A stretch of 64,000 nucleotides of DNA, taken from assembly GCA_900319345.1 (NCBI GenBank), contig ONNZ01000001.1, forward strand, positions 2,739 through 66,738, in the 5' to 3' direction. Positions 7,165 through 34,041 of this stretch are shown here, one piece after another. The position numbers were made by a program, and so were the translations under genes. The notes under the pieces are model-generated. The model saw only the letters and a list, made by a program, of their open reading frames with translations. It had not been told where the DNA came from and did no database searches. Each line of letters starts with the position of its first letter. Position 1 is the stretch's first letter. Source of the DNA: an uncultured Eubacteriales bacterium (GTDB taxonomy: Bacteria; Bacillota; Clostridia; Christensenellales; CAG-138).

Positions 7165-9024
7165 TTACCAGTCGCTGCCCCAGTCGGTGTCGCCGGAATC
7201 CCAGCTGTCGTAGCTGCCGGAGTCCCAGCTGCTGCCGGAATCCCAGCTGCTGCCCGAATCCCAGCTGCTGCCCGAATCCCAGCTGCTGCCGGAGCTGTAG
7301 CTGCTGCCGGAGCCGGAATAGGACGGGTGCAGATCGTCCCAGACGCTGGAATCGGTGAAGCTCTCCGAGCCCCAGCCGCTGTCCCAGTCCTCCCCCTGAT
7401 AGGAGGTGTCGTAGGAGCCATCCGGGGCGTCCGCCTCCGACCAGTCCGTCCCGTCGAAGCTGTACCAGTTGTCCGCCGGGTCGTAGTATTTCCCGTAATA
7501 GTAGAACAGGTCTTCGCCGAAGCGGTAATAGCCGTCCCGGCTGTGCCGGTCGCTTTGGGTGGCGATGACGAAGGAATTCGCCGCGTCGGGCACGCCCCAG
7601 GCGGGGTCGTTTTCCGGGCCCAGATAGGCCTGGTTGCGGTCGCCCTTGGGCGCGTCCGCGTGCTGCCAGCCGTTCTCCCCGTAGGTGTACCAGTTCTCGT
7701 CCCGGTCGTAGGATTCGCCGAAATAGTAATAGAGCACATCGGCGAAGCGATAGTAGCCGTCCCGGCTGTGGTAGCTCTTCAGGGTGGCGATATAGAAATC
7801 CTCGTCCACGTCGGGCACGTCCCAGCCCGGATCGTGGCTCCAGCCCCGATAGGCGCCCTCCTGCGCGAACCCGGCAGGGCATTGGGGCAGCTCATACTCC
7901 CTCTGCCAGGACGACGCCTCGTCGTATCGGAACCAGTCGTTGCTGTAGTGGTAATACCAGCCGTCGCTCAGGCGATAGTAGCCCGAGCTGGGGTAGCCGG
8001 CCCGGTCCGCCCGGAAGGGCTTGAACCCGAAGCTTTCCGCGTACTCCTCCCCCAGATACGCTTCCTCCCTGCCCCAGCTGGGCAGGGACAACACGGGGAT
8101 CCACCAATCCTCCGCCGCATCGTCATAGTAATAGCTGCGCCCGTCCTTATAATAGACCGTCTGATCCTCGTAGCGATAGTATCCGTCGTCCTTGTGGACG
8201 TTCCGCTGCTCGACGAAGGCCGCCGGGAAGCCGATAAGGAGCGTCCAGTGCACGATGGTCAGGGAAAAGGAAAAGAGCGCGCCGATAATGATGAGGAATG
8301 AAGCCAGGCATCCCCATTTCTTTCCGCGGCTGTTGGAAACGATCCTGGACATGAGCGCCATGGGCCAGAACAAGAAGGTGATGAACCCCTTCAGAATCTT
8401 TTGCCAGAGGGACAGGCTGCCCCGAGAGGACCGCCCCGACAAAGACCGGCCCAGGGTCGATCTGTCCGCCGCGGGCCGGTTGGGCGTGAACGCCGGCCGC
8501 CCGTCGGGATAGATGCCCCGGTTGTGGCACTCTGTAAGGAGCTTTTGGAAGATCTCGTTGACGGCGTAGGCTTCGTCCGGCCCGTCGTAGCGGACGGCCC
8601 GGTTACCGTTGTCCTTGTTCTTGTAGACCACGAACCGGTCCCCGTTTTGATAGATGCCGAAGGCCCGGGGCTCCTGGCGGTCCTCGCCGATGAAGAAGCG
8701 CATCCGAAGCAGGGGCATGCCCCGCTCGGCGCAGTACTCCTTCAGCTCCCCGATGGTCCTGGGATGCTGGATGCGCCGGGGGGTGTCCTTTACGAAGTGG
8801 GGGTTCTCCGCCCCGCAGTTGGTGCAGAACTTCTGATCGGAGCGCAGCGTGCCCCCGCAATAGGGGCAGGTGCCCGTGGACGCAGGCTGTTCCGCCCCAC
8901 CGTCCGAAGCCGTCCCGCGGACCGGCACCACGTACAGGGGGTTGTCGGCTCCGCACTGGGGACACTTCCGGCTGGAGGAGGAGATCGGCGCGCCGCAGTA
9001 GGCGCAGATGCCGGTGGACGCCAT
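7165..9024 (-). CDS. double zinc-ribbon membrane protein with Tyr/Trp/Asp-rich extracytoplasmic repeats (function unknown)
   Basis: 619 aa. The N-terminus has two CxxC...CxxC ribbons (CAYCGAPISSSSRKCPQCG; CPYCGGTLRSDQKFCTNCG). Hydrophobic segments follow (ITFLFWPMALM; CLASFLIIIGALFSFSLTIVHWTLLIGFPAAF). Then come four copies of a GYYR[FYL]xD..YYY..(x)n W..W module and a (SGSSWD)n tail. A strong RBS (AAAGGAGAG) overlaps the tktC stop. Confidence 0.85.
   Translation of the reverse strand: MASTGICAYCGAPISSSSRKCPQCGADNPLYVVPVRGTASDGGAEQPASTGTCPYCGGTLRSDQKFCTNCGAENPHFVKDTPRRIQHPRTIGELKEYCAERGMPLLRMRFFIGEDRQEPRAFGIYQNGDRFVVYKNKDNGNRAVRYDGPDEAYAVNEIFQKLLTECHNRGIYPDGRPAFTPNRPAADRSTLGRSLSGRSSRGSLSLWQKILKGFITFLFWPMALMSRIVSNSRGKKWGCLASFLIIIGALFSFSLTIVHWTLLIGFPAAFVEQRNVHKDDGYYRYEDQTVYYKDGRSYYYDDAAEDWWIPVLSLPSWGREEAYLGEEYAESFGFKPFRADRAGYPSSGYYRLSDGWYYHYSNDWFRYDEASSWQREYELPQCPAGFAQEGAYRGWSHDPGWDVPDVDEDFYIATLKSYHSRDGYYRFADVLYYYFGESYDRDENWYTYGENGWQHADAPKGDRNQAYLGPENDPAWGVPDAANSFVIATQSDRHSRDGYYRFGEDLFYYYGKYYDPADNWYSFDGTDWSEADAPDGSYDTSYQGEDWDSGWGSESFTDSSVWDDLHPSYSGSGSSYSSGSSWDSGSSWDSGSSWDSGSSWDSGSYDSWDSGDTDWGSDW
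7219..7308. repeat. 18-bp tandem repeat (4 good copies plus 1 degenerate) inside the 3' end of the zinc-ribbon gene
   Basis: ggaRtcccagctgctgcc repeated head to tail. On the coding strand it encodes GSSWDS units. Confidence 0.9.
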
Positions 9025-9036
9025 AGCTTCTCTCCT

Positions 9037-9960
9037 TTACCTATGCTGTACCGCTTCCCGCACGACGGCGGCCAAGTGGGCGGCGTTGAGGCCCAGGGCT
9101 TCCTTGAGATAGGGGAGCTTCCCCACCTCGCCGAACCGGTCCTCCGCCCCTACGGCCCACACGGGCACAGGGTCGTGGGCCAGGGCCTCCAGCACGGCGG
9201 AACGGAGGCCGCCGATCACGTTGTGGTTCTCCGCCGTGACGATCACGCCAGTCTTCTTTGCGGAAGCAAGGATGGTCTCCCGGTCGATGGGCTTGATAGT
9301 ATGGACGTTGATGACCTCGCAGGAAATGCCCTCCGCGGCCAAGGTTTCCGCCGCCTGCAGGGATTCGCTGACCATGAGGCCCGCAGCGAGGATGGTCACG
9401 TCTGTCCCCGCCCGCAGCAGGTCCGCCTTGAAGAGGTCGAAACGGTAGCCCTCCGGGAACACGGTGGGGAACTCCTTCCGGTTCATGCGCATGTAGACGG
9501 GGCCTTCATAGGCGTGTAAGACCGGCATGGCGGCCTGAAGCTGCACCGTGTCCGTGGGCTCGAAGATGACCAAGCCCGGGATGGACCGGACCACGCCCAT
9601 GTCCTCCAAACTCATATGGGTGCCCCCGTTCAGCTCCGCGGCGATGCCCGGGTCCGTGCCCACGATCTTCACGTTCCGCTTCGCGTAGCACACGGAGATG
9701 GCGATCTGGTCGCAGACCCGCCGGGTGGCGAAGGGGGCGAAGCTCTCCGCCCAAGGCTTATAGCCGTAGCTCGCGAGACCTGCGGCGATGGAGATCATGT
9801 TCTGCTCCGCCACGCCGCAGTCGTAGATACGGTCCGGGAACCGCTTTCTCAGGGGGAAGGTGCCGCAGGCCTTACTGAGGTCCGCGTCCAGCAGGATCAG
9901 CTTTTCGTCCCGCTCCATCAGCTCGCCCAGGCACTGGGCGTACATGGCTCTCATCTCCAT
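9037..9960 (-). CDS. transketolase, C-terminal (pyrimidine-binding) subunit
   Basis: 307 aa. RIYDCGVAEQNMISIAAGLASYG and ILAAGLMVSESLQAAETLAAEGISCEVINVHTIKPID are typical of the small split-transketolase B subunit. Confidence 0.9.
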   Translation of the reverse strand: MEMRAMYAQCLGELMERDEKLILLDADLSKACGTFPLRKRFPDRIYDCGVAEQNMISIAAGLASYGYKPWAESFAPFATRRVCDQIAISVCYAKRNVKIVGTDPGIAAELNGGTHMSLEDMGVVRSIPGLVIFEPTDTVQLQAAMPVLHAYEGPVYMRMNRKEFPTVFPEGYRFDLFKADLLRAGTDVTILAAGLMVSESLQAAETLAAEGISCEVINVHTIKPIDRETILASAKKTGVIVTAENHNVIGGLRSAVLEALAHDPVPVWAVGAEDRFGEVGKLPYLKEALGLNAAHLAAVVREAVQHR

Positions 9961-9963: not shown

Positions 9964-10818
9964 TCACGCCTCCCCGCGAAGGGCCGCCACGGCTGCCTTC
10001 GCCTGTTCCTCGGTGATGTTGGCGTTGTGGTTCCCCGCGCCCAGGTCCACGATCCAGGGGACGCCGCAGCCCTTCACCGTGTTCAATATGACCATGGTGG
10101 GCTTGCCGGTGCCCAGGCCCAGCTTGGCGTGAGCTACCGCGGCGGAGACCTGCTCTACGTCGTTGCCGTCCTCCACCTCGATCACGTGCCAGCCGAAGGC
10201 CGTCCACTTCTCGGCCAGGGGCGCGATATCGTTGATCTCGGCCACGGTACCGCCGATCTGAAGCTTGTTGTAGTCCGTGAAGGCGATCAGGTTGTCGAGA
10301 TGCTTGGCCGCGGCGAACATGGCCGCCTCCCAGATCTGGCCTTCCTGGCTCTCGCCGTCGCCGATGAGGGTGTAGACGATGGCCCCGTCCCTGGCGAGCT
10401 TAGCGCCCAGGGCCGCGCCCACGGCGCAGGAGAACCCCTGGCCAAGGCTCCCGGTGGTCATGTCGATGCCGGTGGTCCGCAGCATGTCGCAGTGGCTGGG
10501 CAGGTCGGTGCCGCCCTGGTTCAATGTCAGCAGCTCCGCCCGGTCGAAGTAGCCCCGGTTGGCCAATGTTGCGTACACCGCCGGGCCCGCGTGGCCCTTG
10601 GAGCAGATGAACCGATCCCGGCCCGCCTTTTGGGGGTCCTTGGGGTCGATGCGCATGGCCTCGAAATAGAGGACGCCCAGCAGCTCCACCACGGACAGGC
10701 ACCCGCCGATGTGGCCCACGCCCAGGTGGCCGATGCTCAGGATGGTGTCGCACCGGATGTCCCGGCAGATCTCCTTCAAATCCTTGTTCAACGTCTCTTT
10801 CTCCTTTTGCCGATTCAT
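9964..10818 (-). CDS. transketolase, N-terminal (thiamine-diphosphate-binding) subunit
   Basis: 284 aa. Motifs: GHIGGCLSVVELL, GSLGQGFSCAVGAALG, GDGESQEGQIWEA. The track start ATG 10818 lies only 3 nt from the predicted -10 box. TTG 10791 with AAGGAG 9 nt upstream is a plausible real start. Confidence 0.88.
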   Translation of the reverse strand: MNRQKEKETLNKDLKEICRDIRCDTILSIGHLGVGHIGGCLSVVELLGVLYFEAMRIDPKDPQKAGRDRFICSKGHAGPAVYATLANRGYFDRAELLTLNQGGTDLPSHCDMLRTTGIDMTTGSLGQGFSCAVGAALGAKLARDGAIVYTLIGDGESQEGQIWEAAMFAAAKHLDNLIAFTDYNKLQIGGTVAEINDIAPLAEKWTAFGWHVIEVEDGNDVEQVSAAVAHAKLGLGTGKPTMVILNTVKGCGVPWIVDLGAGNHNANITEEQAKAAVAALRGEA

Positions 10819-10920: not shown

Positions 10921-12261
10921 ATGAAACCCTTCGTCCCCGTGTACGTACCGGTGGGGGTCCCCACCTTCCATATGGAGAGCGCCCAGGACGCCTTCGAGCG
11001 CTCCGCGGCCGCCCTGAAGGCCATGGACGGCGATTTCGTCTGCCCCGAGGACAAGCTCCTGTCCCTGGACGCCCTGCGGGGGTATCTCGATCCCCTTGCC
11101 CCGGACCTCATCGTGTTCCAGAACCTGACCTTCGCCAACGCCGCCTACATGGCCGAGGTGCTTCGGCGGACCAGCTGCCCTGTGGTGCTCTGGACCCTCC
11201 GGGAGCCGGTGATCGACGGGGGGCGGCTGCGGCTCAACTCCCTTACCGGGTCCTACTCCGCCGCCAACACCCTGCGGGCCTTCTCGGATCGCCCCTTCGT
11301 CTACATCTTCGGCGCGCCGGAGGAGGAGCGGGTCCAGGAGGCGCTGAAGGCCGCCGTGGCCGCCGCTAAGGTGAAACACCACATGCGTGCCCTGAAGCTG
11401 GCCGCCGTGGGGCACACGCCCCAGGGGTTCAGCTTCGGCCGAGCTCTGGACGGGGAGCTGATGGACGCCTTCGGCGTGGAGCTGGAGGCTATCGAGGCCC
11501 GGGAGCTCATGGACCGGGCCCGCGGGTACACCGACGAGGCGTGCCGCCCCTATCTCGAGCGGACCGCCGCGCTGACCTGCGGCTTTGAGCAGACGCCCGA
11601 GCGGAACCGGCTGGACCATGCCAGGCTCTATAAGGCCTACAGCGACTATGTGCAGGCCAGCGGCGTGGGCGCCCTGGCCTCCCGGTGCTGGCCCGACTTT
11701 TTCACCGCCTACGGCACCCCCGTGTGCGCGGTGCTGTCCCTCCTGAACGACGACGGCGTGGCCGCCGCCTGCGAGGCGGACGTGTACGGGGCCCTGTCCA
11801 TGTGGGTAGGCCGGGAGCTCTCCGACAGCCCCGTGTTCTTTGGGGACCCGGTGTCCCTGGACGAGGGCGAGAACACGATCACCTATTGGCACTGCGGGGC
11901 CGCCGCCTGCGCCCTGGCCCGGAAGGACACCGGCGCCGCCGTGGGCGTGCACCCCAACCGAAAGATCGGCCCGGCCATGGACTTCGGCTGCGAAGCCATC
12001 CCCGGCGTCACCGTGTTCCGCATCGGCCGGGAGCCGGACGGCTCCTTCCGCTTCTTCATCGCCGAAGGCGAAGCTCTCGACAAGCCCAAGCAGTTCATCG
12101 GCACCAGCATCGTGGTCCGCACCGACGCCCCCAGCCGCGACCTGGTGGAGGACAGCGTCCAGGCCGGCTTCGAGCCCCATTTCGCCGTGATCCCCGGCCG
12201 CCACGGGGCGGCGCTGGAAGCGCTGGCCACCTTTATGGGGTTTGAGATTTATAGGTATTGA
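10921..12261 (+). CDS. L-fucose/L-arabinose-isomerase-family protein
   Basis: These are the last 446 codons of the artefactual 881-aa track ORF 9616..12261. It starts MKPFVPVYVPVGVPTFHMES. The pattern ...LASRCWPDF...PVCAVLSLLNDDGVAAACEADVYGALSMW...ITYWHCG resembles the FucI-like fold family. Confidence 0.6.
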   Translation: MKPFVPVYVPVGVPTFHMESAQDAFERSAAALKAMDGDFVCPEDKLLSLDALRGYLDPLAPDLIVFQNLTFANAAYMAEVLRRTSCPVVLWTLREPVIDGGRLRLNSLTGSYSAANTLRAFSDRPFVYIFGAPEEERVQEALKAAVAAAKVKHHMRALKLAAVGHTPQGFSFGRALDGELMDAFGVELEAIEARELMDRARGYTDEACRPYLERTAALTCGFEQTPERNRLDHARLYKAYSDYVQASGVGALASRCWPDFFTAYGTPVCAVLSLLNDDGVAAACEADVYGALSMWVGRELSDSPVFFGDPVSLDEGENTITYWHCGAAACALARKDTGAAVGVHPNRKIGPAMDFGCEAIPGVTVFRIGREPDGSFRFFIAEGEALDKPKQFIGTSIVVRTDAPSRDLVEDSVQAGFEPHFAVIPGRHGAALEALATFMGFEIYRY

Positions 12262-12300: not shown

Positions 12301-12342
12301 AAAAGAAACACAAATGGGAAGTATGGCATAGCTGTACTTCCC
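12301..12342 (-). terminator. intrinsic terminator of the GH31-symporter operon
   Basis: On the minus strand: GGGAAGTA, 11 nt loop, TACTTCCC, followed by ATTTGTGTTTCTTTT. Confidence 0.55.
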
Positions 12343-12378
12343 ATTATTCTTCTTGAGTTTCGCTTTTTTCGCCGCGTA

Positions 12379-13791
12379 TTACGCTTCCGCCTGAGCTTTG
12401 AACATCTCTTCCTTCTGTTTCTGCAGCTCCTCCACCCGCTTCTTGCTGAGGGGATAGACAAAGCGGAGGATCAGGAACACCAGCAGGAACAGGACCGCCG
12501 GGATCATGACGGAAAAGTTGTACATGGTGTGGAGGCGCTCCGGCGTCAGGCCCTCGGTCTTAAGTTCGCTCCCGTTATAGCCGATGACCAGCAGGGGCAC
12601 GTTGATGAGGATGGTGGCCACAGTCTGGCCGAGCTTCCGCATGAAGGAATAGAAGGCGTAGCTGGTGGCCTCGTCGTTGAGGCCGTAGGTGACCTTGTTG
12701 TAGTCGATGGCGTCGGTGGCCAGCACCCACACCAGGAGGAAGATGAAGGCCGTGCCGATGCCGGACATGAGGCATGCCAGCAGGTACAGCCACACGTTGG
12801 TGATGCTGAAGATCGCGAGGACGAACAGCACCAGGTAGAAGACGGCGGCCAGCAGCACCCCGTAGGAGCAGACCTCCCGGCGGCCGAACCTGTTCCCCAG
12901 CTTGGTGGCGAAGAACATGACCACGGCCACGGGCAGGTACTGGAACACCGTGGGCAGCATGGTGAGCCCCGGCTGCTTGAAGAAGTGGTGGAACAGGTAC
13001 GCGTTATACCCCTGGCCGAACATCTGGGCCGCCAGGAACAGCATGCTGGCAAGGCTCACCGCCATGAACGCCCGGCTCTTCAAAAGGGTCTTCACCACCT
13101 TCATGGTCTGGCCCTTCGCCTTGGGGGCGGGCTTCGACTCCACCCTCTCCTTGCTCCAGCCGTAGCAGAGGAAGTAGAAGAGGACGGAAAGGGCCGCGAT
13201 GGCCACGACGCCGATGAGCACCCGTTTGGCGTCCATCTGCTTCACCCCGTCCACGGTCACGTAGCACACGGAGGCCAGCACCATGGCGGGCATGGCCCCG
13301 AAGGTGGAGCCGATGGACCTAAACACCGAAAGGCTGGACCGTTCCTTGTCGTCGGAAGTGATGACCTGGGCCAACGACCCGTAGGGGATGTTGATGCAGG
13401 TGTAGAGCATGCCGAAGAGGATGTAGGTCACGTAGATCCAGGCGATGCGGCCGCCCATGGAAAAGCCCCGCACGTCCAGGAACATGAGCACCGCCGCGAG
13501 AGCCACCGGCAGGGCGAAGATCCTGATCCAATGCCGATACCGGCCGTCGCCGTGGAGCTTGGCCCCGTCGATGAGCCGGCCCCAGATGGGGTCGTTCACC
13601 GCGTCCCAGATCCGGGCGATGATGGTCATGATCATGACGTTCAGCACGCTGATCTCCAAAACGTCCGTGTAATACTTGTTGAGGACGCTCTGGGTCAGGC
13701 CGAAGACCAGGCAGGAGGCGAGATCACCGAAGGCGTAGCCGATCTTGTCCCGGGCTTTGATGCCGCTGGTACGGGAGATGTAGGATTCCAT
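12379..13791 (-). CDS. glycoside-pentoside-hexuronide (GPH) family sugar:cation symporter (MelB/YihO-like)
   Basis: 470 aa, 12-TM type. The N-terminal KIGYAFGDLASCLVFG...YYTDVLEISV...ARIWDAVNDPIWGRLID is the GPH signature. Confidence 0.85.
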   Translation of the reverse strand: MESYISRTSGIKARDKIGYAFGDLASCLVFGLTQSVLNKYYTDVLEISVLNVMIMTIIARIWDAVNDPIWGRLIDGAKLHGDGRYRHWIRIFALPVALAAVLMFLDVRGFSMGGRIAWIYVTYILFGMLYTCINIPYGSLAQVITSDDKERSSLSVFRSIGSTFGAMPAMVLASVCYVTVDGVKQMDAKRVLIGVVAIAALSVLFYFLCYGWSKERVESKPAPKAKGQTMKVVKTLLKSRAFMAVSLASMLFLAAQMFGQGYNAYLFHHFFKQPGLTMLPTVFQYLPVAVVMFFATKLGNRFGRREVCSYGVLLAAVFYLVLFVLAIFSITNVWLYLLACLMSGIGTAFIFLLVWVLATDAIDYNKVTYGLNDEATSYAFYSFMRKLGQTVATILINVPLLVIGYNGSELKTEGLTPERLHTMYNFSVMIPAVLFLLVFLILRFVYPLSKKRVEELQKQKEEMFKAQAEA

Positions 13792-13808: not shown

Positions 13809-15785
13809 TTATTTGTTGTCCGCTACGGCGCGGAACAGGTCTGCATAGGCGCTTTCCTTTTTATAGAACACGGGCAGTTGACCGAGGGGCGCGTCCACCG
13901 TATAGCTTTGGCCCCCCGCGTAGGGCTGGCCGGTCCAGAAGTGGACCCATTCCCCCGCCGGTAGGTGCACCCGCCGCTTTTTCGCGTGGCGCTCGATGAC
14001 CGGGCAAATATAGAGGTCCGGCCCCAGGAAGTAGCTGTACATATCGTGGCTGGCGCCGTAGTCCATGGCCTCGTAGAAGTCGGGCCGCAGGGCGGGGACG
14101 CCCCGCTGGGCGTCGGCGATGCAGGCGTCTATATAGGGCTTGAGGGCCACGTGGATGTTGGTGAGCCGCACCGTGTGGGGTGTCACCGCCGGGGCGTCGA
14201 ACTGGCTGTTGGCCCAGGGGCGGATGGACTCGTGGCTCCGCATGAGCAGGGAGAAGGCGCACATCTCCATCCAGCGGACGAACAGCTCGTCGTCCCGCTT
14301 CAGCTTCCCGAAGGAGAAGAAGCCGCCGATGTCGCAGTGGATCATGGGCGCCCCGGAGAAGCCCAGGGAGAAGCTGGCGGGCATGACGCAGGGCATGCCG
14401 TAGTCGTGGGTGGTGTCCGTGTGCTGGTCCCCGTTCCAGAGGATAGGGGCGTAGGTCTGGATGCCCAGATACCCGCTGCGCATGAAGAACAGGATATCCT
14501 TGGCCCCGTACTCCTCCACGGCCTCCCGGTTCACCTTCGCCCAGAGGACGGGCCACAGGTTGTGGAGCTTCTTGGGGTCCCCGTCGTGCAAGACAGCGTC
14601 CACGGGCAGGTATTCGCCGAAGTCCGCCATCCAGCCGGACATACCCAGATCCAGCATGTTTCGCTTGATCAGCACGTCCTTCACGAACCGGATCGCCGCC
14701 GGGTCCGTGAGATCCAGCATGCCCGCGTCGAAGGTGGTGGACTTGATATGATAGATCGAGCCGTCAGCTTTGGTGATGAGGAGCTTTTTCTCTCGGCACT
14801 CGTTGTAGAGGCGGCTGTCCTTCACGAGATAGGGGTTGATATAGCCCAGGAACCGGACGCCCCGGGCGTTGAGCTTTTGTATGGCGCCCTTGAGATCGGG
14901 GTAGAGCTTCTCGTCCGCCTCCCAGTTCCACCAGACCTGCTTGCCCATAATGGTCCGATTCTCCCCGGACCAATCCTGGCTCCACACGCCCGAGATCTTG
15001 GCCCCCGCGTCCAGCATGGCGAAGGTCTTGGTGAGGATGGCCTCGGTGCCCCCCTGGATGGAGAGGATCATGCCCTCCCGGCACCAGTTGGGGATGTACT
15101 GCCGGTTGGGGATGCGGTCAGCTAGCAGCAGCGCCAGGGCTTCATAGCTCTCCCCCGTGAGCAGCGTCAGCTTCCGGGGGCAGCTGTCGAAGGTGAAGGA
15201 GTACCCCTCGTCCAGGAACCGGGAGACCCCGTCGGCCTCCGTATCGAAGAGGAACAGCCGACCCTTGTCCGTGACGAACACGGGCATGGGGGCGTAGCTG
15301 CCGATGGCGCTGTGGGGCTTTTCCTTGTACAGGCACCGGGGCAGCAGGGCCTTCTCCAGGATGGTGGTGGCCTTGATGTGCTCGGAGACGAAGTTCACCA
15401 CGTGCTCGCCCCTGAGGTTGGTCTGCCGGTACTGCTCCCCGCCGCCGAAGACGGCCTCTCCCTCGAGCGCCGCCAGGGCGAAGCTGTAGGCCCAGCCATC
15501 CTCGCCGGAGAACAGCAGATCCGCGCCGCCGTCGCAGGGGACCACCTTGACCTGCAGGGCGTGGCCGCCACCGGAGAGCACCACGCCCTCCGCGGTCTCC
15601 GCCACGTCGGTGAGGGGCACCCGCTCCGCCTCCACCACGGTCTCCTTTACGGTGCCCCGGTCGCTCTCGTAGGTCTTCTCCCGGCGCAGGGCGACGGCGA
15701 AGGGGGTCTCGGGCCTGTGGGCGACGAAAGGAGCTCCGTCCAAAGACAGGGTCCATGTGTTTTCCAAAACCTGGGAGAGGAGCAT
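13809..15785 (-). CDS. GH31 alpha-glycosidase of the YihQ (sulfoquinovosidase) clade, with non-canonical substrate-pocket residues
   Basis: These are the last 658 codons of the artefactual 1185-aa track ORF. ATG 15785 has GGAG upstream. Motif blocks: SIQGGTEA, GVWSQDWSG, GWMADFGEYLP, ILWNGDQH, HCDIGGF, MRSHES, PVFYKK. They are collinear with my recollection of E. coli YihQ. Confidence 0.85.
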   Translation of the reverse strand: MLLSQVLENTWTLSLDGAPFVAHRPETPFAVALRREKTYESDRGTVKETVVEAERVPLTDVAETAEGVVLSGGGHALQVKVVPCDGGADLLFSGEDGWAYSFALAALEGEAVFGGGEQYRQTNLRGEHVVNFVSEHIKATTILEKALLPRCLYKEKPHSAIGSYAPMPVFVTDKGRLFLFDTEADGVSRFLDEGYSFTFDSCPRKLTLLTGESYEALALLLADRIPNRQYIPNWCREGMILSIQGGTEAILTKTFAMLDAGAKISGVWSQDWSGENRTIMGKQVWWNWEADEKLYPDLKGAIQKLNARGVRFLGYINPYLVKDSRLYNECREKKLLITKADGSIYHIKSTTFDAGMLDLTDPAAIRFVKDVLIKRNMLDLGMSGWMADFGEYLPVDAVLHDGDPKKLHNLWPVLWAKVNREAVEEYGAKDILFFMRSGYLGIQTYAPILWNGDQHTDTTHDYGMPCVMPASFSLGFSGAPMIHCDIGGFFSFGKLKRDDELFVRWMEMCAFSLLMRSHESIRPWANSQFDAPAVTPHTVRLTNIHVALKPYIDACIADAQRGVPALRPDFYEAMDYGASHDMYSYFLGPDLYICPVIERHAKKRRVHLPAGEWVHFWTGQPYAGGQSYTVDAPLGQLPVFYKKESAYADLFRAVADNK

Positions 15786-15819: not shown

Positions 15820-15848
15820 ATCATACCGGGAAAACCGCCGTTCGTCAA
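15820..15848 (-). promoter_or_regulatory. promoter of the GH31-symporter operon
   Basis: On the minus strand: TTGACG (15848-15843), 17 nt spacer, TATGAT (15825-15820), about 35 nt before the ATG. Confidence 0.5.
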
Positions 15849-15918: not shown

Positions 15919-15956
15919 AATCTGCCTCGAAACCCCATTTTGCCCCCTGTTTTTTG

Positions 15957-15986
15957 TTGCACATCGGGGCATGGTTGTGCTATAAT
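15957..15986 (+). promoter_or_regulatory. promoter upstream of ftsA (extended -10)
   Basis: TTGCAC (15957-15962), 18 nt spacer, TGcTATAAT (-10 at 15981-15986). Confidence 0.5.
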
Positions 15987-16064
15987 CCCATCTGTATAGA
16001 TATAGATGGGGAATCCCGTGTTGTTTCGTGTGCGCGGAATCCCGGTGAGAAGCGTGGAGGAAGC

Positions 16065-17261
16065 ATGAAACCCGCAGCGATACTGGATGTGGGCAGTTCC
16101 AAAGTGGTGTGCCTGTGCGGAAGCATGGTCGATAAGGACGGCATCGTCGTCCACGGGGCCGGCATCAGCGCATACGCCGGCTTTCGGGACGGGGCGTTCC
16201 TCGACAAGCAGAGCCTGCACAACGCCGTGGTGGACTGCGTCCACAAGACCGAGCAGGAGAGCCGTCTGCGCATCCGGGACGTAGCGTTGACCGTGCCCGC
16301 GTCCTTCGCCCGGCTGGAGCTCTGCGACGCCACCATCGCCCTTGGTTCCTCCCGGCTGGTGGAAAGCGGGGACGTGGATAGGCTCATCCACCTGTCGCTC
16401 CAGAAGGCGAAGAAGGAGGAGGGCTGGACGCTGATGCACTCCACCCCCGTCTTCTTCATGGTGGACGGCGTCTCCTCCACCGAGATGCCCGACGGGGTCA
16501 CCGCCGAGGAGGTCTCCGCCCTGGTGAGCCACATGTTCGTCCGGGACGAGTTCATCCGCACCATCCAGGACGCGCTGGACGATCTGGGCGTGGAGATCAG
16601 CATGTGCGTCAGCGCGCAGCTGGGCGAGGCGGTCATGCTGATCCCCGACAACGAGCGGGTCCGGCCGGCGGTGCTCATCGACATCGGGTACATGCAGACG
16701 GACATCGCCGTGGTGGAGAACGCGGCCCTCACCGGCCTTTCCACCCTGCCCGTGGGCGGTTACCAGTTCGCCTCGGACCTGTCCTTCGGGCTGGACGTGC
16801 CCATGGACGCCGCGGAGCAGGCCAAGCGCCGCTTCGTCTTCTCCCTGGACTATCGGGACAAGACGGAGGTGCTGCGCACGGCCGCCGGTTCCAAGAAGGT
16901 TTCCCACCAGGCCATCTCCTACATCATCGAGGCCCGAGCCGGAGAGCTCGCGTCCATGATCCGCCGGGAGATGGAACAGCTGGGCGTCAACCTGGACGCT
17001 CGACCCGCCGTGTACGTGTCCGGCGGAGGGCTTTTGATGATGCGGGGCGGGCTGGACTTCCTTCGGGGAGCCCTGAACCTGCCGCTGAAGCGGGACATGC
17101 CTTGGACGCCTCGGCTGTCCTCGCCCAACTACTGCAGCGCCTTCGGCGCATTGGACTTCGTATTGAAGGCCAACAGCTCGCCGGAGGAATCCATGGCCAA
17201 GCAGAAGGACGATCGCGTCGCCGGTCTGCTTGAGAAGATAAAAAACTTTTTCATGAAATAA
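16065..17261 (+). CDS. ftsA: cell division protein FtsA (actin-like ATPase)
   Basis: 398 aa from ATG 16065 (GGAGG upstream): [17 protein letters not shown]..., [27 protein letters not shown]. It lies immediately upstream of ftsZ. Confidence 0.85.
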
Positions 17262-17277
17262 CGAAGGGGGACACAAG

Positions 17278-18504
17278 ATGTTTGAACAGGATTTCGAGGG
17301 CGCATCCTTCGCCCAGATCAAGGTCATCGGCGTGGGCGGCGCCGGCTGTAACGCGGTGAACCGCATGGTCCAGTACGGGCTTCAGGGCGTGGAATTCATC
17401 GCCGTGAACACGGATAAGCAGGCCCTGTCCATGAACAAGGGCGACAACAAGATCCAGATCGGCGAAAAGCTGACCAAGGGCCTGGGCGCAGGCGCCGATC
17501 CCGAGATCGGCCGCAAGGCCGCCGACGAGAGCCGGGACCTGATCCAGGAAGCCCTGCGCGGCGCGGACATGGTGTTCATCACCGCCGGTATGGGCGGCGG
17601 CACCGGCACGGGCGCGGCGCCCATCGTGGCCCAGTGCGCCAAGGAGATGGGCATCCTCACCGTGGGCGTGGTCACCAAGCCCTTCACCTTCGAGGGCCGG
17701 GTCCGCATGCGCAACGCGGAAGCGGGCATCGAGAATTTGAAGCCCGCCGTGGACACCCTCATCACCATTCCCAACGACAAGCTGATCGCTCTCGTGGGCA
17801 AGGCCTCCCTGCCCGACGCCCTGCGGGTAGCTGACGACGTGCTTCGTCAGGGCATCCAGGGCATCTCCGATCTCATCGCCGTGCCCTCCATGATCAACCT
17901 GGACTTCGCCGACGTGAAGACCATCATGAAGGAAAAGGGCATGGCCCACATGGGCATCGGCACCGCCTGCGGCGAGAAGCGGGCCAGCGAAGCGGCCAAG
18001 CAGGCCGTGGAGAGCCCCCTGCTGGAGACCAGCATCGACGGCGCCAAGGGCATCCTCATCAACATCACCGGCGGTCCCGATCTGAGCCTCCTGGAGGTCA
18101 ACGAGGCTGCGGAGCTCATCCAGCAGTCCGCCGATCCCGACGCCAACATCATCTTCGGCGCGGACATCGACGAGAGCATGGGCGACGCCCTTCGGATCAC
18201 CGTCATCGCCACCGGCTTCGACAAGGCTGAGGTGGGCAAGCAGAGCGCCCAGCAGCCCCTGGTGTTCGGCAGCCGTCCCGCCCCCGCGCCCCGGGCCTAC
18301 AGCGCGCCTCAGTCCGTGCCCGCCTCCGCGGAGAATGCCTTCTCCGCCCGACCCTACGCCCAGCTGAAGGAGGAGGACGCCCCCGCTGCTGAGCCGGAGG
18401 CCCCCCAGAAGAAGGAGAGCACCTTCACCGAGCAGGACATTCGCCGGGAGTACACCAACCGTCCCGCCAACAAACTGGACATCCCCGCCTTCCTGCGCAA
18501 GTAA
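17278..18504 (+). CDS. ftsZ: cell division GTPase FtsZ
   Basis: [17 protein letters not shown], the tubulin signature [17 protein letters not shown], and a C-terminal DIPAFLRK tail. Confidence 0.97.
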
Positions 18505-18516
18505 GCTGAACATGAA

Positions 18517-18548
18517 AGCACCGGACGATCTTCGTCCGGTGCTTTTTT
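18517..18548 (+). terminator. intrinsic terminator after ftsZ
   Basis: agcaccggacg / cgtccggtgct form an 11-bp stem with a 5-nt loop, followed by TTTTTT. Confidence 0.8.
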
Positions 18549-18554
18549 GCCGCC

Positions 18555-18583
18555 TTGACAGGGTTTTTGCCGCATAGTATAGT
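18555..18583 (+). promoter_or_regulatory. near-consensus promoter of the secreted-protein gene
   Basis: TTGACA (18555-18560), 17 nt spacer, TATAGT (18578-18583). Confidence 0.55.
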
Positions 18584-18636
18584 TAAAATAGAGTAATGTC
18601 CCTGTCCAAGGGCAGGCGGCAAAAAGGAGGAGCCTC

Positions 18637-19761
18637 ATGAAACGTCTCTTGTCTTTGATCCTGGCCCTGCTGATGACGGTGGCGCTGTTCGGCGTGAGCG
18701 GCGCTATGAAGTACGCCTACGCGGAGGGGGACGGCGAGGAGCCCTCCGAGCCCGCGGAACCGGTCAACCCCTATGTGGGCCTCTGGGAGATCACCGGCCG
18801 GAAGGAGGGGGAGGTCTATACGCCCTATGGGGACGGGGAGGAAAAGATCTACATGGACTTTCTGCCCAACGGCGTCATCTATGCCATCCTGTACGATGGG
18901 GAGGACGCGGACGAGGACTATGCCGCCTATAAGGTGACCGGTGAGAACGCCCTGACCCTGTTCGAAGGAGACGACCCCATCCTCGGGGTCTACGACCCAG
19001 AGACGGGCATCATCACCGTCACGGCCGAAGCCGTCAACGGTCCCTACATCACCTACCTCCAGCGGGTCACGACGGACCCCCTGCCCGACGTATGGGCCAT
19101 GGTGGACCATTCTGAGGAGGAGCAGCAGTATTACGGATATGAGATGCGGGACGAGGAACAGGTCATGGACCTGGTGGAGTTCCTGGCCATCGTCGACGAA
19201 GATCCCGACGAGTACTACTGCCTGACCATGCAGCCCGACGGCACCGGCTACGTGCAGTTCGGCAGCGAGGAGTTGGGCGGCGACATCCTCTGGGACGAGA
19301 CCCAGATCATCGCCGTGGGCAACGAGGATGAACCCGCGCCCTATACCCGGAAATACGGCCATGTCATCATGGATATCAAGGGCACGATCATGGATTTTGC
19401 CCCGGTGGGTGAGATCGAGATCCTGACGGCGGTCAAGGGATGGGAGCTGAAGAACCTTCCCGCCCAGATCCCGGAGGACATGGAGGGCACCTGGGAGCTA
19501 TTCAATTGCAAGGCGTACGGCGTCGAGCGCACCCCCGAGCAGATGAACATCTCCATGACCTTCGTCCTGAACCTCAACGGCACGGCGGTCCTGTACACCA
19601 ACGACCTGGCCCCCGCCGGGTATCGGCTGTCCCAGAAGGAGGAGGGTACCTGGATCCTCTCCTCCGGCGGTGTGGAGCTCTATGAGCTGCAATACGACGG
19701 CACGGTCCTGACGCTGAACTATATGGGCGTGGATATGCTCTTTGAAAAGGCCGAAGGCTGA
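18637..19761 (+). CDS. secreted acidic protein of unknown function (signal peptide, repeated lipocalin-like GxW modules)
   Basis: MKRLLSLILALLMTVALFGVSGA is a signal peptide. VGLWEITG, EGTWELFNC and EGTWILSS recur. AAGGAGGAG RBS upstream. Confidence 0.75.
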   Translation: MKRLLSLILALLMTVALFGVSGAMKYAYAEGDGEEPSEPAEPVNPYVGLWEITGRKEGEVYTPYGDGEEKIYMDFLPNGVIYAILYDGEDADEDYAAYKVTGENALTLFEGDDPILGVYDPETGIITVTAEAVNGPYITYLQRVTTDPLPDVWAMVDHSEEEQQYYGYEMRDEEQVMDLVEFLAIVDEDPDEYYCLTMQPDGTGYVQFGSEELGGDILWDETQIIAVGNEDEPAPYTRKYGHVIMDIKGTIMDFAPVGEIEILTAVKGWELKNLPAQIPEDMEGTWELFNCKAYGVERTPEQMNISMTFVLNLNGTAVLYTNDLAPAGYRLSQKEEGTWILSSGGVELYELQYDGTVLTLNYMGVDMLFEKAEG

Positions 19762-19819: not shown

Positions 19820-20776
19820 TCACAGCAGCCCTTCGGCTATCAATCGCTCCAGGACCATGGCTTCTCGAAGGAGCATGGTGTGGTACTTGCGCTTGTAGAT
19901 GCTGGTCAGGGCTTTGTTCTCCTGGATGGCCGCCTTGGGGTCCACCCAGCAGAGGGTATACCCCTCCTCTGCCTCGTAGCCGTCCAGCTCCTGGGGGACC
20001 ACAGCGGTGGCCGAGGCCAGGTAATAGAAGTTGTCTTGGATGAACAGAGGCTCCCGGTCGCCCCGCTCGATCCGATGGACGAAGCCGTAGGGCCGGACGC
20101 TCTTGAGGTCCAGGACCAGCCCCGCCTCCTCCCGGGCCTCCCGCAGGAGGGCCGTCTCCCGGGTCTCCCCCGGCTCGATGCCGCCGCCGGGGAACTTGTA
20201 ATGCTGAAACTTTCGGCTGTAGACCATGGCCACCCGGCCGTTTCGGATGACGACGGCTCGGGCCGAGGGCCGGGAAAAAGCTTTGCCGCCCTCTTCGTAG
20301 TTTCGGGCGTCCATGGTGAACAGCAGCCGCATGCGGCTCTCCTCCAGGGTGAGGAGCCGCCGTTTGATATCCATGCCCCCCGCAAAGCCCGTCAAACTCC
20401 CGTCCGCACCGATCACCCGATGGCAGGGGATCATAATAGCGATCGGGTTGTTGTGGACCGCCTGACCCACGGCCCGGGGGGAGCCGCAGCCCGCCGCCTT
20501 GGCCAGCGCCCCGTAGCTCACGGTCTCGCCGAAGGGCACCCGGACCAGCTCATGCCACACCCTTTGCTGGAAGGCCGTGCCCGCCGGGGATAGGGGCGGC
20601 GTGGGGCCCGGGTCCCGGCCCAAAAAGTATTCGTCCAGCCAGGCGAAGGCCGCCCGGAACAGGGGCAGGGCCGTGATCGGCTCCGACGAGGGGCCGAAGC
20701 TGAGCTCCGTCAGGGAAGTCCCGTCGGAAGCGAGGGCCAGGGGCCCCACGGGGCTGTCGTATCGGAAATAAAACAC
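19820..20776 (-). CDS. in-frame fusion: O6-alkylguanine-DNA alkyltransferase (MGMT/Ogt) domain + NUDIX hydrolase domain
   Basis: 318 codons from GTG 20776 (AAGGAGG 6 nt upstream). Residues 1-147 carry the MGMT motifs ...VSYGALA...NPIAIMIPCHRVIGADGSLTGFAGG. Residues 149-318 carry the NUDIX box GGGIEPGETRETALLREAREEAGL. There is no stop codon between the two halves. Confidence 0.8.
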   Translation of the reverse strand: MFYFRYDSPVGPLALASDGTSLTELSFGPSSEPITALPLFRAAFAWLDEYFLGRDPGPTPPLSPAGTAFQQRVWHELVRVPFGETVSYGALAKAAGCGSPRAVGQAVHNNPIAIMIPCHRVIGADGSLTGFAGGMDIKRRLLTLEESRMRLLFTMDARNYEEGGKAFSRPSARAVVIRNGRVAMVYSRKFQHYKFPGGGIEPGETRETALLREAREEAGLVLDLKSVRPYGFVHRIERGDREPLFIQDNFYYLASATAVVPQELDGYEAEEGYTLCWVDPKAAIQENKALTSIYKRKYHTMLLREAMVLERLIAEGLL

Positions 20777-20787
20777 GGGAGACCTCC

Positions 20788-22254
20788 TTACACTAAGAAC
20801 CATACCATCGCGCCTGCGGCCATGAGCCCCCAGCCCAGGAAAGCGGGCTTTGTCCGGTTGGGCAGGAAATAGTCCGAAACGAACAGCATCCCCGTGAACC
20901 ACAGGAGCAGGGCTATTCCGTTGCAGGGCGGCAGGATCAGGCCCGCCACGGGCGCCAACTCTGCCAGGGAGAAGAGATAGTACAGCACGCCATTGGGGAG
21001 CAGGGCCAGGATCTGGGCTGCCGTCGGCAGCAGCGGATAGAGGAGCACCGCGATCCAGCCGGGGATCAGGAACAGGGGCGCCGCCGGCAACGCCAGGAGC
21101 GACAGGAACACGCCCACCCAGGACACCTCTCCGCCCGTCACGGAGAGCAGGGGCAGCGTGCCCAGGAACGCGCCCACGACCCCTGCCAGCAGACCGCCCA
21201 GCCCCGCCCGCTGGCCATGCAGCAGGTCCGTCATGGGCACGCTCAGGCAGCTGAGGCCCCAGACGGCCCCGAAGGACAGGCGAAAGCCCGAGGCCATGAG
21301 GAAGGACGGGTTGATCAACAGCAGCAGCGTCATGGCGCAGCCGATCTCGCTGATGGGGTCGTCCTGCCGATCCAGCAGATGGGAGAATCGGACGATGAGC
21401 AGCATGATGGCCGCCCGCAGGGAGGAGGGCGAAAGGCCCGTCAGCAGGCAGAAGAGGAACAGCAGCAGGACGGACAGCAGGAACCGGAGCCACTTGCGCC
21501 GTCCCCGGATGAGCCGCAGGGCCGCCCCGCAGACCACGCCCACGTGGAGGCCGGACACGGTCAACAGGTGCAGCAGCCCGCTGCGGCGAAAGGCCAGGAA
21601 GGTGAGATAGTGGACGTCGTCCCGATCCCCGAACAGCATGCCCCGGGCGACGCCGGCGTTCTCCCCGAAGAGAGCGTCCGCCGCCTCGCCCAGCTTCTCC
21701 CGCCATCGGAGGGCCAGCCCGTAGAGGGGGTCCCCCCGGCCCTGCCGGACGGTGATCTCCCCCGCCCCCTGGGCCCCGTACAGCACGGTCTTCAAGCCCC
21801 GGACCGCACCCCGATCGTCGGGCGTCACCCGGGCCTGCAGGGACAGGGCGTCTCCATAGGCAAGATCGGCGCGGAAGGGCACGGTGAGGGTCAGGGCTCC
21901 CGGCACCCGCCGCCCGTCCAAGGTCACCCGGTCCAATATCACGGTGGTCTCGCCTCGCTTCTGTTCCGGCGCGTCCATCACGGTGCCCGTCACCTCGTAG
22001 AGGCCGGGGACCACATTCACCTGGGGCAGCGCCGCCCCGCGCAGGAGCAGCAGGCCCAGGAGCAGGGGCAGGGCGTAGACAGCCCTCCCCCGCCGCAGCA
22101 GGATCACGCCCAGGGCCAGGGCGACCAGGCCCAGCACCAGCAGCAGCCACCCGCCCAGGCGCAGGGCCAGCAGGGCCCCTGTCAGGGCCCCCGGGATGCC
22201 CCAGAGCATAGGCCGCTCGTTGAAATATCGACGTTGTCTCAGCCAGTCCTCCAT
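20788..22254 (-). CDS. comEC: ComEC/Rec2-family competence channel protein (no beta-lactamase-like domain)
   Basis: These are the last 488 codons of track ORF 20788..23013, starting MEDWLRQRRY. It is polytopic, with SGLLHLLTVSGLHVGVV, the Competence-domain motif. Confidence 0.75.
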   Translation of the reverse strand: MEDWLRQRRYFNERPMLWGIPGALTGALLALRLGGWLLLVLGLVALALGVILLRRGRAVYALPLLLGLLLLRGAALPQVNVVPGLYEVTGTVMDAPEQKRGETTVILDRVTLDGRRVPGALTLTVPFRADLAYGDALSLQARVTPDDRGAVRGLKTVLYGAQGAGEITVRQGRGDPLYGLALRWREKLGEAADALFGENAGVARGMLFGDRDDVHYLTFLAFRRSGLLHLLTVSGLHVGVVCGAALRLIRGRRKWLRFLLSVLLLFLFCLLTGLSPSSLRAAIMLLIVRFSHLLDRQDDPISEIGCAMTLLLLINPSFLMASGFRLSFGAVWGLSCLSVPMTDLLHGQRAGLGGLLAGVVGAFLGTLPLLSVTGGEVSWVGVFLSLLALPAAPLFLIPGWIAVLLYPLLPTAAQILALLPNGVLYYLFSLAELAPVAGLILPPCNGIALLLWFTGMLFVSDYFLPNRTKPAFLGWGLMAAGAMVWFLV

Positions 22255-32707: not shown

Positions 32708-32814
32708 TCTTGTCCCCCATTGATGAAAAATATCCTTCGCTGTTCCGCACTTCACATTCAGCCTTATATTTGGAAGCGATGCAGCGCTTGGATCGAAGCA
32801 ACTGATCCATGATC

Positions 32815-32854
32815 GTAAAAAGAAGAATAGGGAGGAAAGCCATCCCTTCCTCCC
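32815..32854 (-). terminator. intra-operon stem-loop/attenuator between the binding-protein and ATPase genes
   Basis: On the minus strand: GGGAGGAA...TTCCTCCC (8-bp arms), followed by TATTCTTCTTTTT. It sits in the 164-nt gap after the binding-protein stop. Confidence 0.5.
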
Positions 32855-32871
32855 CTTTGGCTCAGATAGGA

Positions 32872-33909: not shown

Positions 33910-33935
33910 AATGATTATTCCTTCCCATTCGTTGT

Positions 33936-33980: not shown

Positions 33981-34004
33981 GGGAAATTCAGAATATATGT
34001 GATA

Positions 34005-34041
34005 GCGTCAAAGCAATAATACACAATCATTGCTTTGACGC
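34005..34041 (-). terminator. stem-loop downstream of the LicC-like gene
   Basis: gcgtcaaagcaat / attgctttgacgc form 13-bp arms with an 11-nt loop. The T-tract is weak. Confidence 0.45.

Follow-up and report, generated by a model that had tools for sequence, protein, structure and literature searches.

Candidate sulfoquinovosidases without the sulfonate-binding Arg and Tyr: a rumen lineage within an Arg-less subfamily of YihQ-like GH31 glycosidases

A stretch of 64,000 nucleotides from an uncultured Eubacteriales bacterium (assembly GCA_900319345.1, contig ONNZ01000001.1, positions 2,739 to 66,738), referred to as the window throughout, encodes a YihQ-like glycosidase of family GH31 in which two of the three sulfonate-binding residues are replaced. 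In E. coli YihQ, the sulfonate pocket is formed by Arg301, Trp304 and, via a water molecule, Tyr508 (PMC8006165), and the signature of YihQ-type enzymes is described as the "Q/E-RWY motif" (PMC12780224). The window protein, the query of this analysis, carries Gln, Trp and Phe (Q-W-F) where these enzymes carry Arg, Trp and Tyr (R-W-Y). Judged by a curated hidden Markov model (HMM) and by monophyly with validated enzymes, it is a member of the YihQ-type sulfoquinovosidases (GH31_13), and it would probably, if by no wide measure of confidence, act as an intracellular sulfoquinovosidase that recognizes the sulfonate without Arg or Tyr. The sequence comparisons are read most economically if it belongs to an alternative form of YihQ-type sulfoquinovosidase, with a cationic partner of the sulfonate that would have moved away from position 301, and if the Q-W-F lineage of the rumen is a derived branch of that subfamily in which the water-mediated Tyr contact would have been dropped as well. 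The subfamily is termed "HKH" after residues H136, K145 and H455 of the query; the label is coined in this analysis and is not that of a published family.

The query was aligned by phmmer with PDB chains, by BLASTP with the authentic YihQ of E. coli K-12 (NC_000913), and by MAFFT. All three place the query string GKQVWWNW on GKRVMWNW of YihQ and HCDIGGFF on HSDIGGYT, and residue counting in the BLASTP alignment assigns Q283 to R301, W286 to W304, and F489 to Y508. The initial annotation had named these same three residues; its register was right, neither an Arg nor a Tyr being found at the sulfonate-binding positions, and all four sequence blocks it had quoted are present (GVWSQDWSG, GWMADFGEYLP with D388, LWNGDQ with D453, and MRSHES). 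Both catalytic Asp residues are intact, the nucleophile D388 (YihQ D405) and the acid/base D453 (YihQ D472) being invariant in 146 sequences of the Q-W-F clade. Equally invariant in this clade are Gln283 at the position of the sulfonate-binding Arg (R283 in the A. tumefaciens enzyme, AtSQase), W286 at that of the Trp (AtSQase W286), and F489 at that of the water-mediated Tyr (AtSQase Y491). The Q/E residue of the Q/E-RWY motif and its partner (Q288-Q262 or E270-K245) are represented by Q270 and Q244, so that the Q262/Q288 pair is kept, along with W304 and H537 (YihQ numbering). Every other group compared has Tyr at position 508; E. coli YicI reads HDIGGF.

The earlier statement that the recognition triad is neutralized thus stands insofar as Arg and Tyr are replaced, but Q301 is common to a much larger group of homologues. 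The Arg-to-Gln change is not special to this protein; it marks a whole monophyletic sister clade, in which it is invariant and which has Q-W-Y members linked to sulfoquinovose gene clusters; only the Tyr-to-Phe change and its neighbouring changes are specific to the Q-W-F lineage. Similarly, the Arg of the ENRT string proposed as a compensating residue does lie six residues before Q283 (R277), but it is present in only 139 of the 146 clade members and missing from seven. In R-W-Y and Q-W-Y enzymes, the residue just before the R277 site is usually Arg (YihQ R294); since the segment thus carries an Arg with or without R301, R277 was judged a weak compensator. By their conservation, H136, K145 and H455, which are invariant in the subfamily, and H158, which is found in 142 of the 146 Q-W-F sequences, would be better candidates.

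Membership in the YihQ-type group, as initially assumed, is borne out at several levels. The query scores 580.9 bits against the NCBIfam YihQ equivalog NF007746 (cut-off 553), its homologues carry the GH31 domains PF01055 and PF21365, and the motifs of both catalytic Asp residues are present. The best sequence matches in the PDB by phmmer are the sulfoquinovosidases BmSQase (8r56), ErSftG (6pnr), YihQ and AtSQase (E = 1e-124 to 1e-113), and the identity to E. coli YihQ is 37% over nearly the full length (BLASTP). For the AlphaFold2 model (predicted TM-score 0.88), the top Foldseek matches are sulfoquinovosidases only, with TM-scores of 0.88-0.91 (6PNR, 8R56, 5OHT/5AED, 5OHS), YicI following at about 0.7. 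In a neighbour-joining tree with 100 bootstraps, the HKH group is monophyletic in 85/100 replicates, and it clusters with the validated sulfoquinovosidases, to the exclusion of long Q-W-Y proteins, in 100/100. The Q-W-F proteins form a monophyletic lineage nested within HKH (100/100), which takes in the distant members P0122 (49% identity) and P0123 (43%); the latter has a K/E version of the Q/Q pair.

HKH proteins are defined by Gln at YihQ position 301 together with His-153, Lys-158, His-474 and a residue other than Gly at 175; the query has Q283, H136, K145, H455 and H158 at these sites. The signature was compared in 43 R-W-Y, 47 cluster-linked Q-W-Y and 146 Q-W-F sequences. Positions 153, 158 and 474, the last lying two residues after the acid/base, are invariantly His, Lys and His in the Q-W-F and the cluster-linked Q-W-Y proteins; in R-W-Y and other Q-W-Y proteins, they are mostly Gln (153), mostly Pro, Asn or Asp (158), and Leu, Met, Thr or Asn (474). 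Position 175 is His in Q-W-F, mostly Phe or Tyr in cluster-linked Q-W-Y, and Gly in the remaining proteins. The combination is invariant in the 146 Q-W-F and in 52+119 Q-W-Y sequences, with all Q-W-Y sequences added by a second homologue search carrying H-K-H, and it occurs in none of the 43 R-W-Y and 52 other Q-W-Y sequences. A census of positions 288/301/304/508 in about 230 YihQ-like sequences counted QQWY 104 times, QQWF 42 times, QRWY 36 times and ERWY seven times; relatives of the query at 36-43% identity (L032-L080) are nearly all Q-W-Y and not R-W-Y.

The cluster-linked Q-W-Y proteins of the HKH type are 34-45% identical to the window protein. Sulfoquinovose-pathway genes lie near 41 of the 47 corresponding loci, the transaldolase pathway being linked in 34 and a transketolase in one. 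Sulfo-transaldolase clusters with such a GH31 gene were recognized by Pfam in Faecalibacterium prausnitzii (L035), Alistipes onderdonkii (L071) and an Oscillospiraceae metagenome-assembled genome (MAG; L072). Each encodes the GH31 enzyme, a transaldolase, a sulfolactaldehyde-reductase-like dehydrogenase and a FucI-like isomerase; DUF4867, TauE and a ROK regulator are also found in L035 and L071, and a GPH transporter gene in L035 and L072. Expression of the F. prausnitzii sulfo-transaldolase pathway has been reported from metatranscriptomes of the human gut (PMC8397734). The 52 other Q-W-Y sequences are long proteins without the HKH residues, encoded in contexts unrelated to sulfoquinovose. 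Q301 as such was therefore rejected as a sign of a function other than sulfoquinovose release, as HKH-type Q-W-Y enzymes occur in sulfoquinovose clusters and the long ones elsewhere; the existence of the latter also means that W304 and Y508 alone are not diagnostic of sulfoquinovosidases. Such long proteins (700-770 amino acids), typified by L134-L136, are numerous. In L072, an 821-amino acid open reading frame without a Pfam match (7443..9905) lies between the GPH gene and the Q-W-Y GH31 gene.

The Q-W-F combination itself is invariant in the 146 clade sequences, which span 61-93% identity, and this invariance argues against both chance and sequencing error. The 120 closest database homologues (68-93% identity) are all Q-W-F, save for one truncated sequence ending before position 489. 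When one genome was scanned for each GTDB species, 31 loci at 61-94% identity emerged, beyond which identity drops sharply to at most 43%; nearly all of the 31 are from rumen or gut Oscillospiraceae/Clostridia MAGs, one of which is named Ca. Limivicinus. Changes specific to the lineage are Y508F, T509F, L491F, G175H, V475T, S485C, G539S, N540I and A348C (YihQ numbering). The change of M303 to Trp is typical but not unique, Trp being found there in some R-W-Y and in most long Q-W-Y proteins as well.

The GH31 gene lies in a sulfoquinovose catabolic cluster, adjoined by genes for SqvD, SqwG, SqwH, SqwI, an EamA-family transporter and a DUF4867 protein (Table 1). SqvD, SqwG, SqwH, SqwI and SqvB are families of the sulfo-transketolase pathway (PMC9594981), for all enzymes of which the window has candidate genes except the iron-containing alcohol dehydrogenase (Fe-ADH) SqwF. 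Neither Fe-ADH nor a ROK/MarR regulator was found by tblastn in the whole 64 kb; the sulfoacetaldehyde reductase would thus be encoded elsewhere, or the end product would differ. The sister locus L007 carries both an Fe-ADH (SqwF) and a ROK/MarR regulator gene (18161..19255, 20298..21512). Pattern scans suggest three transcription units, namely GH31-GPH, SqvD, and SqwG through DUF4867. The GPH-family symporter encoded directly downstream of the GH31 gene probably takes up the glycoside. Its identity to E. coli YihO, YihP and YicJ is 24-26% in each case, which is uninformative as to orthology, and its best-scoring equivalog model is that of a glucuronide transporter, far below the cut-off. A GPH protein 80% identical to it is paired with a Q-W-Y GH31 enzyme in the sulfo-transaldolase cluster L072, which suggests that both would import the same class of substrate.

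The survey of the Q-W-F variant and its neighbours advocated in the initial annotation gave approximate locus counts, a few loci having been fetched twice from the same contig. At least one sulfoquinovose-pathway gene lies within the fetched flank in 28 of 41 Q-W-F loci, a transketolase gene in 24, Fe-ADH (SqwF) in 14 and a transaldolase gene in none; the GPH gene is next to the GH31 gene in 30. A scan seeded with SqwH of the window recovered this cluster backbone from further rumen MAGs, with identities of 72-74% for SqvD, 69-80% for the transketolase subunits, 83-85% for SqwI, 66-69% for EamA and, where found, 60-61% for DUF4867. In five of these loci (L090, L093, L099, L100, L102), a canonical GH31 gene (QQ-RWY) is located 5' of SqvD in place of the Q-W-F GH31-GPH pair. 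Of the arguments from context, this replacement in the same slot speaks most strongly for a Q-W-F enzyme that feeds the same pathway, and the sulfo-transketolase context is the strongest argument that its substrate remains a sulfoquinovoside. In the window, as in most cluster-linked loci, similarity searches turned up no further glycosidase as a potential source of sulfoquinovose, GH188 SqgA not having been searched for.

From these data we infer the substrate, the role of the transporter and the sulfonate-contacting residues as follows. The GPH symporter, apparently cotranscribed with the GH31 gene, would import a sulfoquinovosyl glycoside, most likely sulfoquinovosyl glycerol derived from plant sulfolipid in the rumen. 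In the cytoplasm, the GH31 enzyme, a predicted retaining α-glycosidase of the sulfoquinovosidase group (HKH subfamily), would cleave it by double displacement with Asp388 as nucleophile and Asp453 as acid/base; by eye, nothing resembling a signal peptide is seen at its N-terminus. The sulfoquinovose set free would enter the sulfo-transketolase pathway via the SqvD isomerase, the SqwGH transketolase, the SqwI isomerase and the EamA exporter. The sulfonate would be held by the indole of Trp286 and the amide of Gln283 instead of the Arg-Trp-Tyr(water) triad, together with residues that changed as the Arg was lost, namely His136 and Lys145 of the remodelled N-domain loop, His455 and, in the Q-W-F lineage, His158. 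The Tyr-to-Phe change, together with T509F, L491F and M303W, would render the pocket narrower and less polar. Precedents for such a solution are SqgH, a GH31 enzyme that acts as a sulfoquinovosidase although it lacks the RWY motif (PMC12780224), and the sulfolactaldehyde reductase, whose sulfonate pocket lacks a direct Arg contact (PMC8006165). For YihQ, AtSQase and SftG, kcat/KM values are roughly 1e5 M-1 s-1 (PMC11968277).

Several observations weigh against a sulfoquinovosidase function of the Q-W-F enzymes. The structurally characterized enzymes YihQ, AtSQase, ErSftG and BmSQase are all R-W-Y, and substitutions of R301 in YihQ, studied by Speciale in 2016, reportedly abolish activity. No assayed enzyme of the HKH type could be identified. 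In the diverged active-site loops (residues 133-156, 453-465 and 486-496), the per-residue confidence (pLDDT) of the AlphaFold2 model falls below 50; its global fold is that of the sulfoquinovosidases, but it is unreliable in the very loops in question, and reading the pocket geometry from it was therefore rejected. The exchanges of Tyr, Thr and Leu for Phe and of Met for Trp create a more hydrophobic pocket, as would suit a smaller or neutral 6-substituent, and Phe at the Y508 position is the state found in YicI, which is not a sulfoquinovosidase. The GH31-GPH pair seems to form a transcription unit apart from the pathway genes, and in roughly one locus out of four the module stands alone, in L008 among housekeeping genes. 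The MAG RUG674 has both types, an R-W-Y YihQ beside sulfo-transketolase genes (L090, ONVI01000003) and, elsewhere, a stand-alone Q-W-F GH31-GPH pair preceded by a LysR regulator gene (L017, ONVI01000015), and this coexistence argues for non-redundant roles. Finally, the yihQ amplicon of Ca. Limivicinus that responded to sulfoquinovose in a rumen study (PMC13219744) is 97 amino acids long, which is the length in R-W-Y enzymes (L099, L100), Q-W-F enzymes giving 94.

That study was consequently rejected as in-situ support for the Q-W-F type, the gene detected being most likely of the R-W-Y type. It amended free sulfoquinovose (PMC13219744), which needs no glycosidase. The same work remarks that some Ca. 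Limivicinus species carry two yihQ copies, with which the presence of both GH31 types in RUG674 is in keeping. Table S1 of PMC13219744 lists enzymes of Clostridium sp. MSTE9, C. symbiosum and Alkalicoccus urumqiensis as validated; their YihQ proteins did not surface in the cluster look-ups, in the transketolase-seeded genome scan or in the second homologue search.

Two readings had been offered in the initial annotation, an alternative way of binding the sulfonate and a changed 6-substituent, and both remain live hypotheses. According to the latter, which is considered rather unlikely, the Q-W-F enzymes would cleave a related α-gluco glycoside with a smaller or uncharged group at C6, imported by the GPH symporter, such as an α-quinovoside (6-deoxy), the α-glucosyl- or α-glucuronosyl-glycerol of membrane glycolipids, or an α-xyloside; the adjacency to sulfo-transketolase genes would then reflect substrates that co-occur in plant lipid digests, or historical linkage. 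With both polar sulfonate contacts gone and the bulky F489, F490, F472 and W285 gained, the three Phe residues and the Trp at position 303 do resemble the closing of a pocket, and the α-xylosidase YicI, which shares the Phe, is likewise encoded next to a GPH gene. The retention of an R-W-Y YihQ by the pathway genes in RUG674, the apparently separate and sometimes solitary module and the glucuronide-transporter model that tops the GPH equivalogs, far below its cut-off as it is, would also fit. The distant Q-W-F enzymes P0122 and P0123 are, moreover, encoded directly beside genes for UxaC, UxuA, an SDR, KDPG aldolase and a PfkB kinase. However, P0122 and P0123 also adjoin genes for an SqvD-class isomerase and an EamA or Fe-ADH protein, a sulfoquinovose-like context, and hexuronate genes flank the Q-W-Y sulfo-transaldolase cluster L072 as well, so that this adjacency does not discriminate. 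Against a changed 6-substituent speak, furthermore, the pathway genes adjoining the module in most loci, its occupation of the R-W-Y YihQ slot, the lack of another sulfoquinovose-supplying glycosidase in the similarity searches (with the said restriction as to SqgA), the complete retention of the HKH signature of the cluster-embedded Q-W-Y enzymes, and the occurrence of the same transporter orthologue in a Q-W-Y sulfo-transaldolase cluster. That the Q-W-F proteins are not sulfoquinovosidases at all, having been derived from sulfoquinovosidase stock for another 6-modified α-glucoside with a dedicated GPH transporter (α-quinovosyl, α-glucuronosyl or α-glucosyl glycerol of membrane glycolipids, for instance), is regarded as unlikely; if true, it would add to GH31 a novel specificity with a genetic link to the breakdown of sulfolipid in the rumen.

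The hexuronate-catabolism genes named above were seen directly beside HKH-type GH31 genes in three independent contigs (L072 15360..19113, L081 6020..9313, L083 13971..22013), which include both Q-W-Y and Q-W-F enzymes. The adjacency may be a coincidence or a link to glucuronosyl glycerolipids.

Alternatively, the sugar would be the same and the aglycone different, with the HKH and Q-W-F changes fitting the +1 site to such substrates as acylated sulfoquinovosyl glycerols or further sulfoquinovosyl conjugates. In other GH31 structures, those of GAA and MGAM, the +1 subsite tends to be lined by the N-domain loop and by the second residue past the acid/base; H455, H136 and K145 sit at just such places, and the HKH residues might thus instead shape aglycone binding. 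R-W-Y and Q-W-F enzymes would then be complementary within one genome, as their coexistence in RUG674 would allow, and breadth of this kind is known, E. coli YihQ cleaving intact sulfolipid as well as sulfoquinovosyl glycerol (PMC13436972). Since R301 and Y508 are sulfonate contacts of the -1 site (PMC8006165), their loss would, however, stay unexplained, and a GPH symporter would be unlikely to take up an acylated lipid; an altered aglycone is considered quite improbable. Decay to a non-catalytic paralogue under relaxed selection, which the loss of both canonical contacts and the canonical copy in some genomes might bring to mind, is hardly credible: the catalytic Asp pair, Q-W-F and HKH are kept throughout the 146 sequences at 61-93% identity, along with well over a hundred other invariant positions in a 50-sequence alignment; the reading frame is intact, of full length and tightly coupled to the transporter gene; and the invariance of the replacing residues points to purifying selection on a new state. 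A pseudogene or artefact was rejected on the same grounds of conservation.

Table 1. Features of the GH31 locus in the window (YihQ equivalents in brackets)
Feature	Position	Strand	Remarks
GH31 glycosidase gene	13809..15785	-	658-aa open reading frame; YihQ-like, HKH subfamily, Q-W-F lineage
Sigma-70-like -35/-10 pair TTGACG-17-TATGAT	15820..15848	-	5' of GH31 gene; pattern match only
Remodelled N-domain loop SEHIKATTILEK	15351..15386	-	H136 (Q153), K145 (N158)
H158	15312..15314	-	(G175)
Loop QDWSGENRTIMGKQVWWNW, residues 270-288	14922..14978	-	Q270 (Q288), R277, Q283 (R301), W285 (M303), W286 (W304)
GWMADFGEY	14610..14636	-	catalytic nucleophile D388 (D405)
WNGDQHT	14418..14438	-	acid/base D453 (D472), subfamily-invariant H455 (N474), lineage-specific T456 (V475)
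HCDIGGFF, residues 483-490	14316..14339	-	F489 (Y508), F490 (T509); invariant in Q-W-F lineage
GPH-family (MFS_2) sugar:cation symporter gene	12379..13791	-	470 aa; starts 17 bp after GH31 stop; TIGR00792 267 bits
Terminator-like hairpin	12313..12345	.	15-bp stem; between convergent SqvD and GPH genes; pattern match only
SqvD/SftI-type sulfoquinovose isomerase candidate (FucI-like)	10921..12261	+	446 aa; convergent with GPH gene; family per PMC9594981
SqwG-like transketolase N-terminal subunit	9964..10818	-	PF00456 E = 5e-48; syntenic in related loci
SqwH-like transketolase C-terminal subunit	9037..9960	-	PF02779, PF02780
Double zinc-ribbon protein	7165..9024	-	619 aa; two N-terminal zinc ribbons, no other Pfam domain; between SqwH and SqwI
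SqwI-like (RpiB/LacAB family) 4-deoxy-4-sulfoerythrose isomerase candidate	6649..7125	-	PF02502 E = 2e-41; role per PMC9594981
EamA-family transporter, candidate sulfonate-product exporter	5725..6633	-	PF00892; 56-88% identity in sister loci
DUF4867 protein (SqvB/SftX)	5051..5722	-	PF16161 E = 2e-60; likely start ATG at 5722
ftsA and ftsZ (cell division)	15954..18504	+	directly 5' of GH31 gene, divergent

The GH31 reading frame is intact (658 codons, N-terminus MLLSQVLENTW), with AGGAG directly 5' of its ATG at 15785. A longer frame of 1185 amino acids over the gene was dismissed as a read-through artefact of high G+C content, homologues being 657-660 amino acids long. The adjoining ftsA and ftsZ genes show that the sulfoquinovose cluster is embedded in the core chromosome. 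The zinc-ribbon gene is confined to the closest relatives (L084-L086, L088, L130) and is missing from other sulfo-transketolase loci. The SqvD candidate is 54-62% identical to the isomerase encoded in sulfo-transaldolase loci. Two classes of FucI-like isomerases accompany the GH31 genes (L040, L044, L045, L062, L063, L070, L071, L081, L083), one with that identity to SqvD of the window and the other with only 22-28%; the divergent class is also present within the complete sulfo-transaldolase cluster L071. Further along the window (30000..64000), the G+C content drops from about 63% to 45-50%, and the genes encode functions of the envelope polysaccharide or teichoic acid type (LicD, cytidylyltransferases, LytR-CpsA-Psr, an ABC transporter, a ParA-like ATPase).

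Reviews up to mid-2026 recognize YihQ (GH31_13, RWY), SqgH and GH188 SqgA (PMC13436972, PMC12890257), and no account of a YihQ subfamily lacking the Arg, or of a Q-W-F branch, was found in the literature. What the present analysis contributes is an Arg-less sister subfamily that includes the yihQ/sftG genes of prominent species of the human gut (Faecalibacterium, Roseburia and Alistipes) and has different invariant basic residues, as well as a widespread rumen lineage in which the Tyr is lost, too. Arg-Trp-Tyr is regarded as the hallmark of YihQ-type sulfoquinovosidases, and searches of genomes and metagenomes for sulfoquinovose degraders have made use of signature residues (PMC8397734, PMC12780224); the Arg-less subfamily calls this diagnostic into question. 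Screens that rely on HMMs or trees (PMC8397734, PMC13219744) have evidently included genes of the HKH type in their yihQ counts. If HKH proteins are active sulfoquinovosidases, there would be at least one more structural solution for sulfonate recognition in GH31, and motif screens would give too low a number of degraders; otherwise, some of the "yihQ richness" reported for rumen and gut would have been assigned the wrong function. Either outcome bears on gut sulfur cycling and H2S production and can be tested with the existing substrates para-nitrophenyl (pNP)-sulfoquinovoside and sulfoquinovosyl glycerol.

Compared with the known GH31_13 enzymes (YihQ, the A. tumefaciens enzyme, E. rectale SftG 6PNR and B. 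megaterium BmSQase 8R56), the query is alike in fold (TM-score 0.88-0.91) and similar in length at 31-37% identity, and it shares the nucleophile and acid/base motifs, the Q262/Q288 pair, W304, H537 and the location in a sulfoquinovose cluster. It differs by R301Q, Y508F, G175H, T509F, L491F, G539S and N540I, by the N-domain loop SEHI....EK in place of SE[QP]GVGR[ND]K, and by the His after the acid/base (GDQH). With the Q-W-Y enzymes of Faecalibacterium prausnitzii, Roseburia and Alistipes onderdonkii, annotated as yihQ/sftG, it shares the subfamily, with Q301, W304, H153, K158, H474 and a residue other than Gly at 175, the location in sulfoquinovose clusters and, frequently, an adjacent GPH gene; these enzymes, however, keep Y508, T509 and L491 and are transaldolase-linked, whereas the Q-W-F enzymes are transketolase-linked.

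SqgH of Alteromonas macleodii, from a second clade of GH31 sulfoquinovosidases, does not conserve the Q/E-RWY motif and yet hydrolyses both pNP-sulfoquinovoside and sulfoquinovosyl glycerol (PMC12780224); RWY is thus not obligatory for sulfoquinovosidase activity. The query is unlikely to belong to the SqgH clade. By its description, SqgH is only about 28% identical to YihQ, as against 37% for the query, stands outside GH31_13, lacks the connecting β-sheets of YihQ, is predicted to use R302, T377, K412 and F513, and occurs in marine Gammaproteobacteria together with the sulfoquinovose dioxygenase (sulfo-SDO) pathway (PMC12780224). The pair YicI-YicJ of E. coli, an α-xylosidase and a GPH xyloside transporter, has the same two-gene layout and Phe at the position of YihQ Y508. 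YicI, however, is only 23% identical to the query, lacks the whole R301/W304 loop and reaches a TM-score of about 0.7 only, for the Klebsiella as well as the E. coli enzyme, while the transporters are 26% identical.

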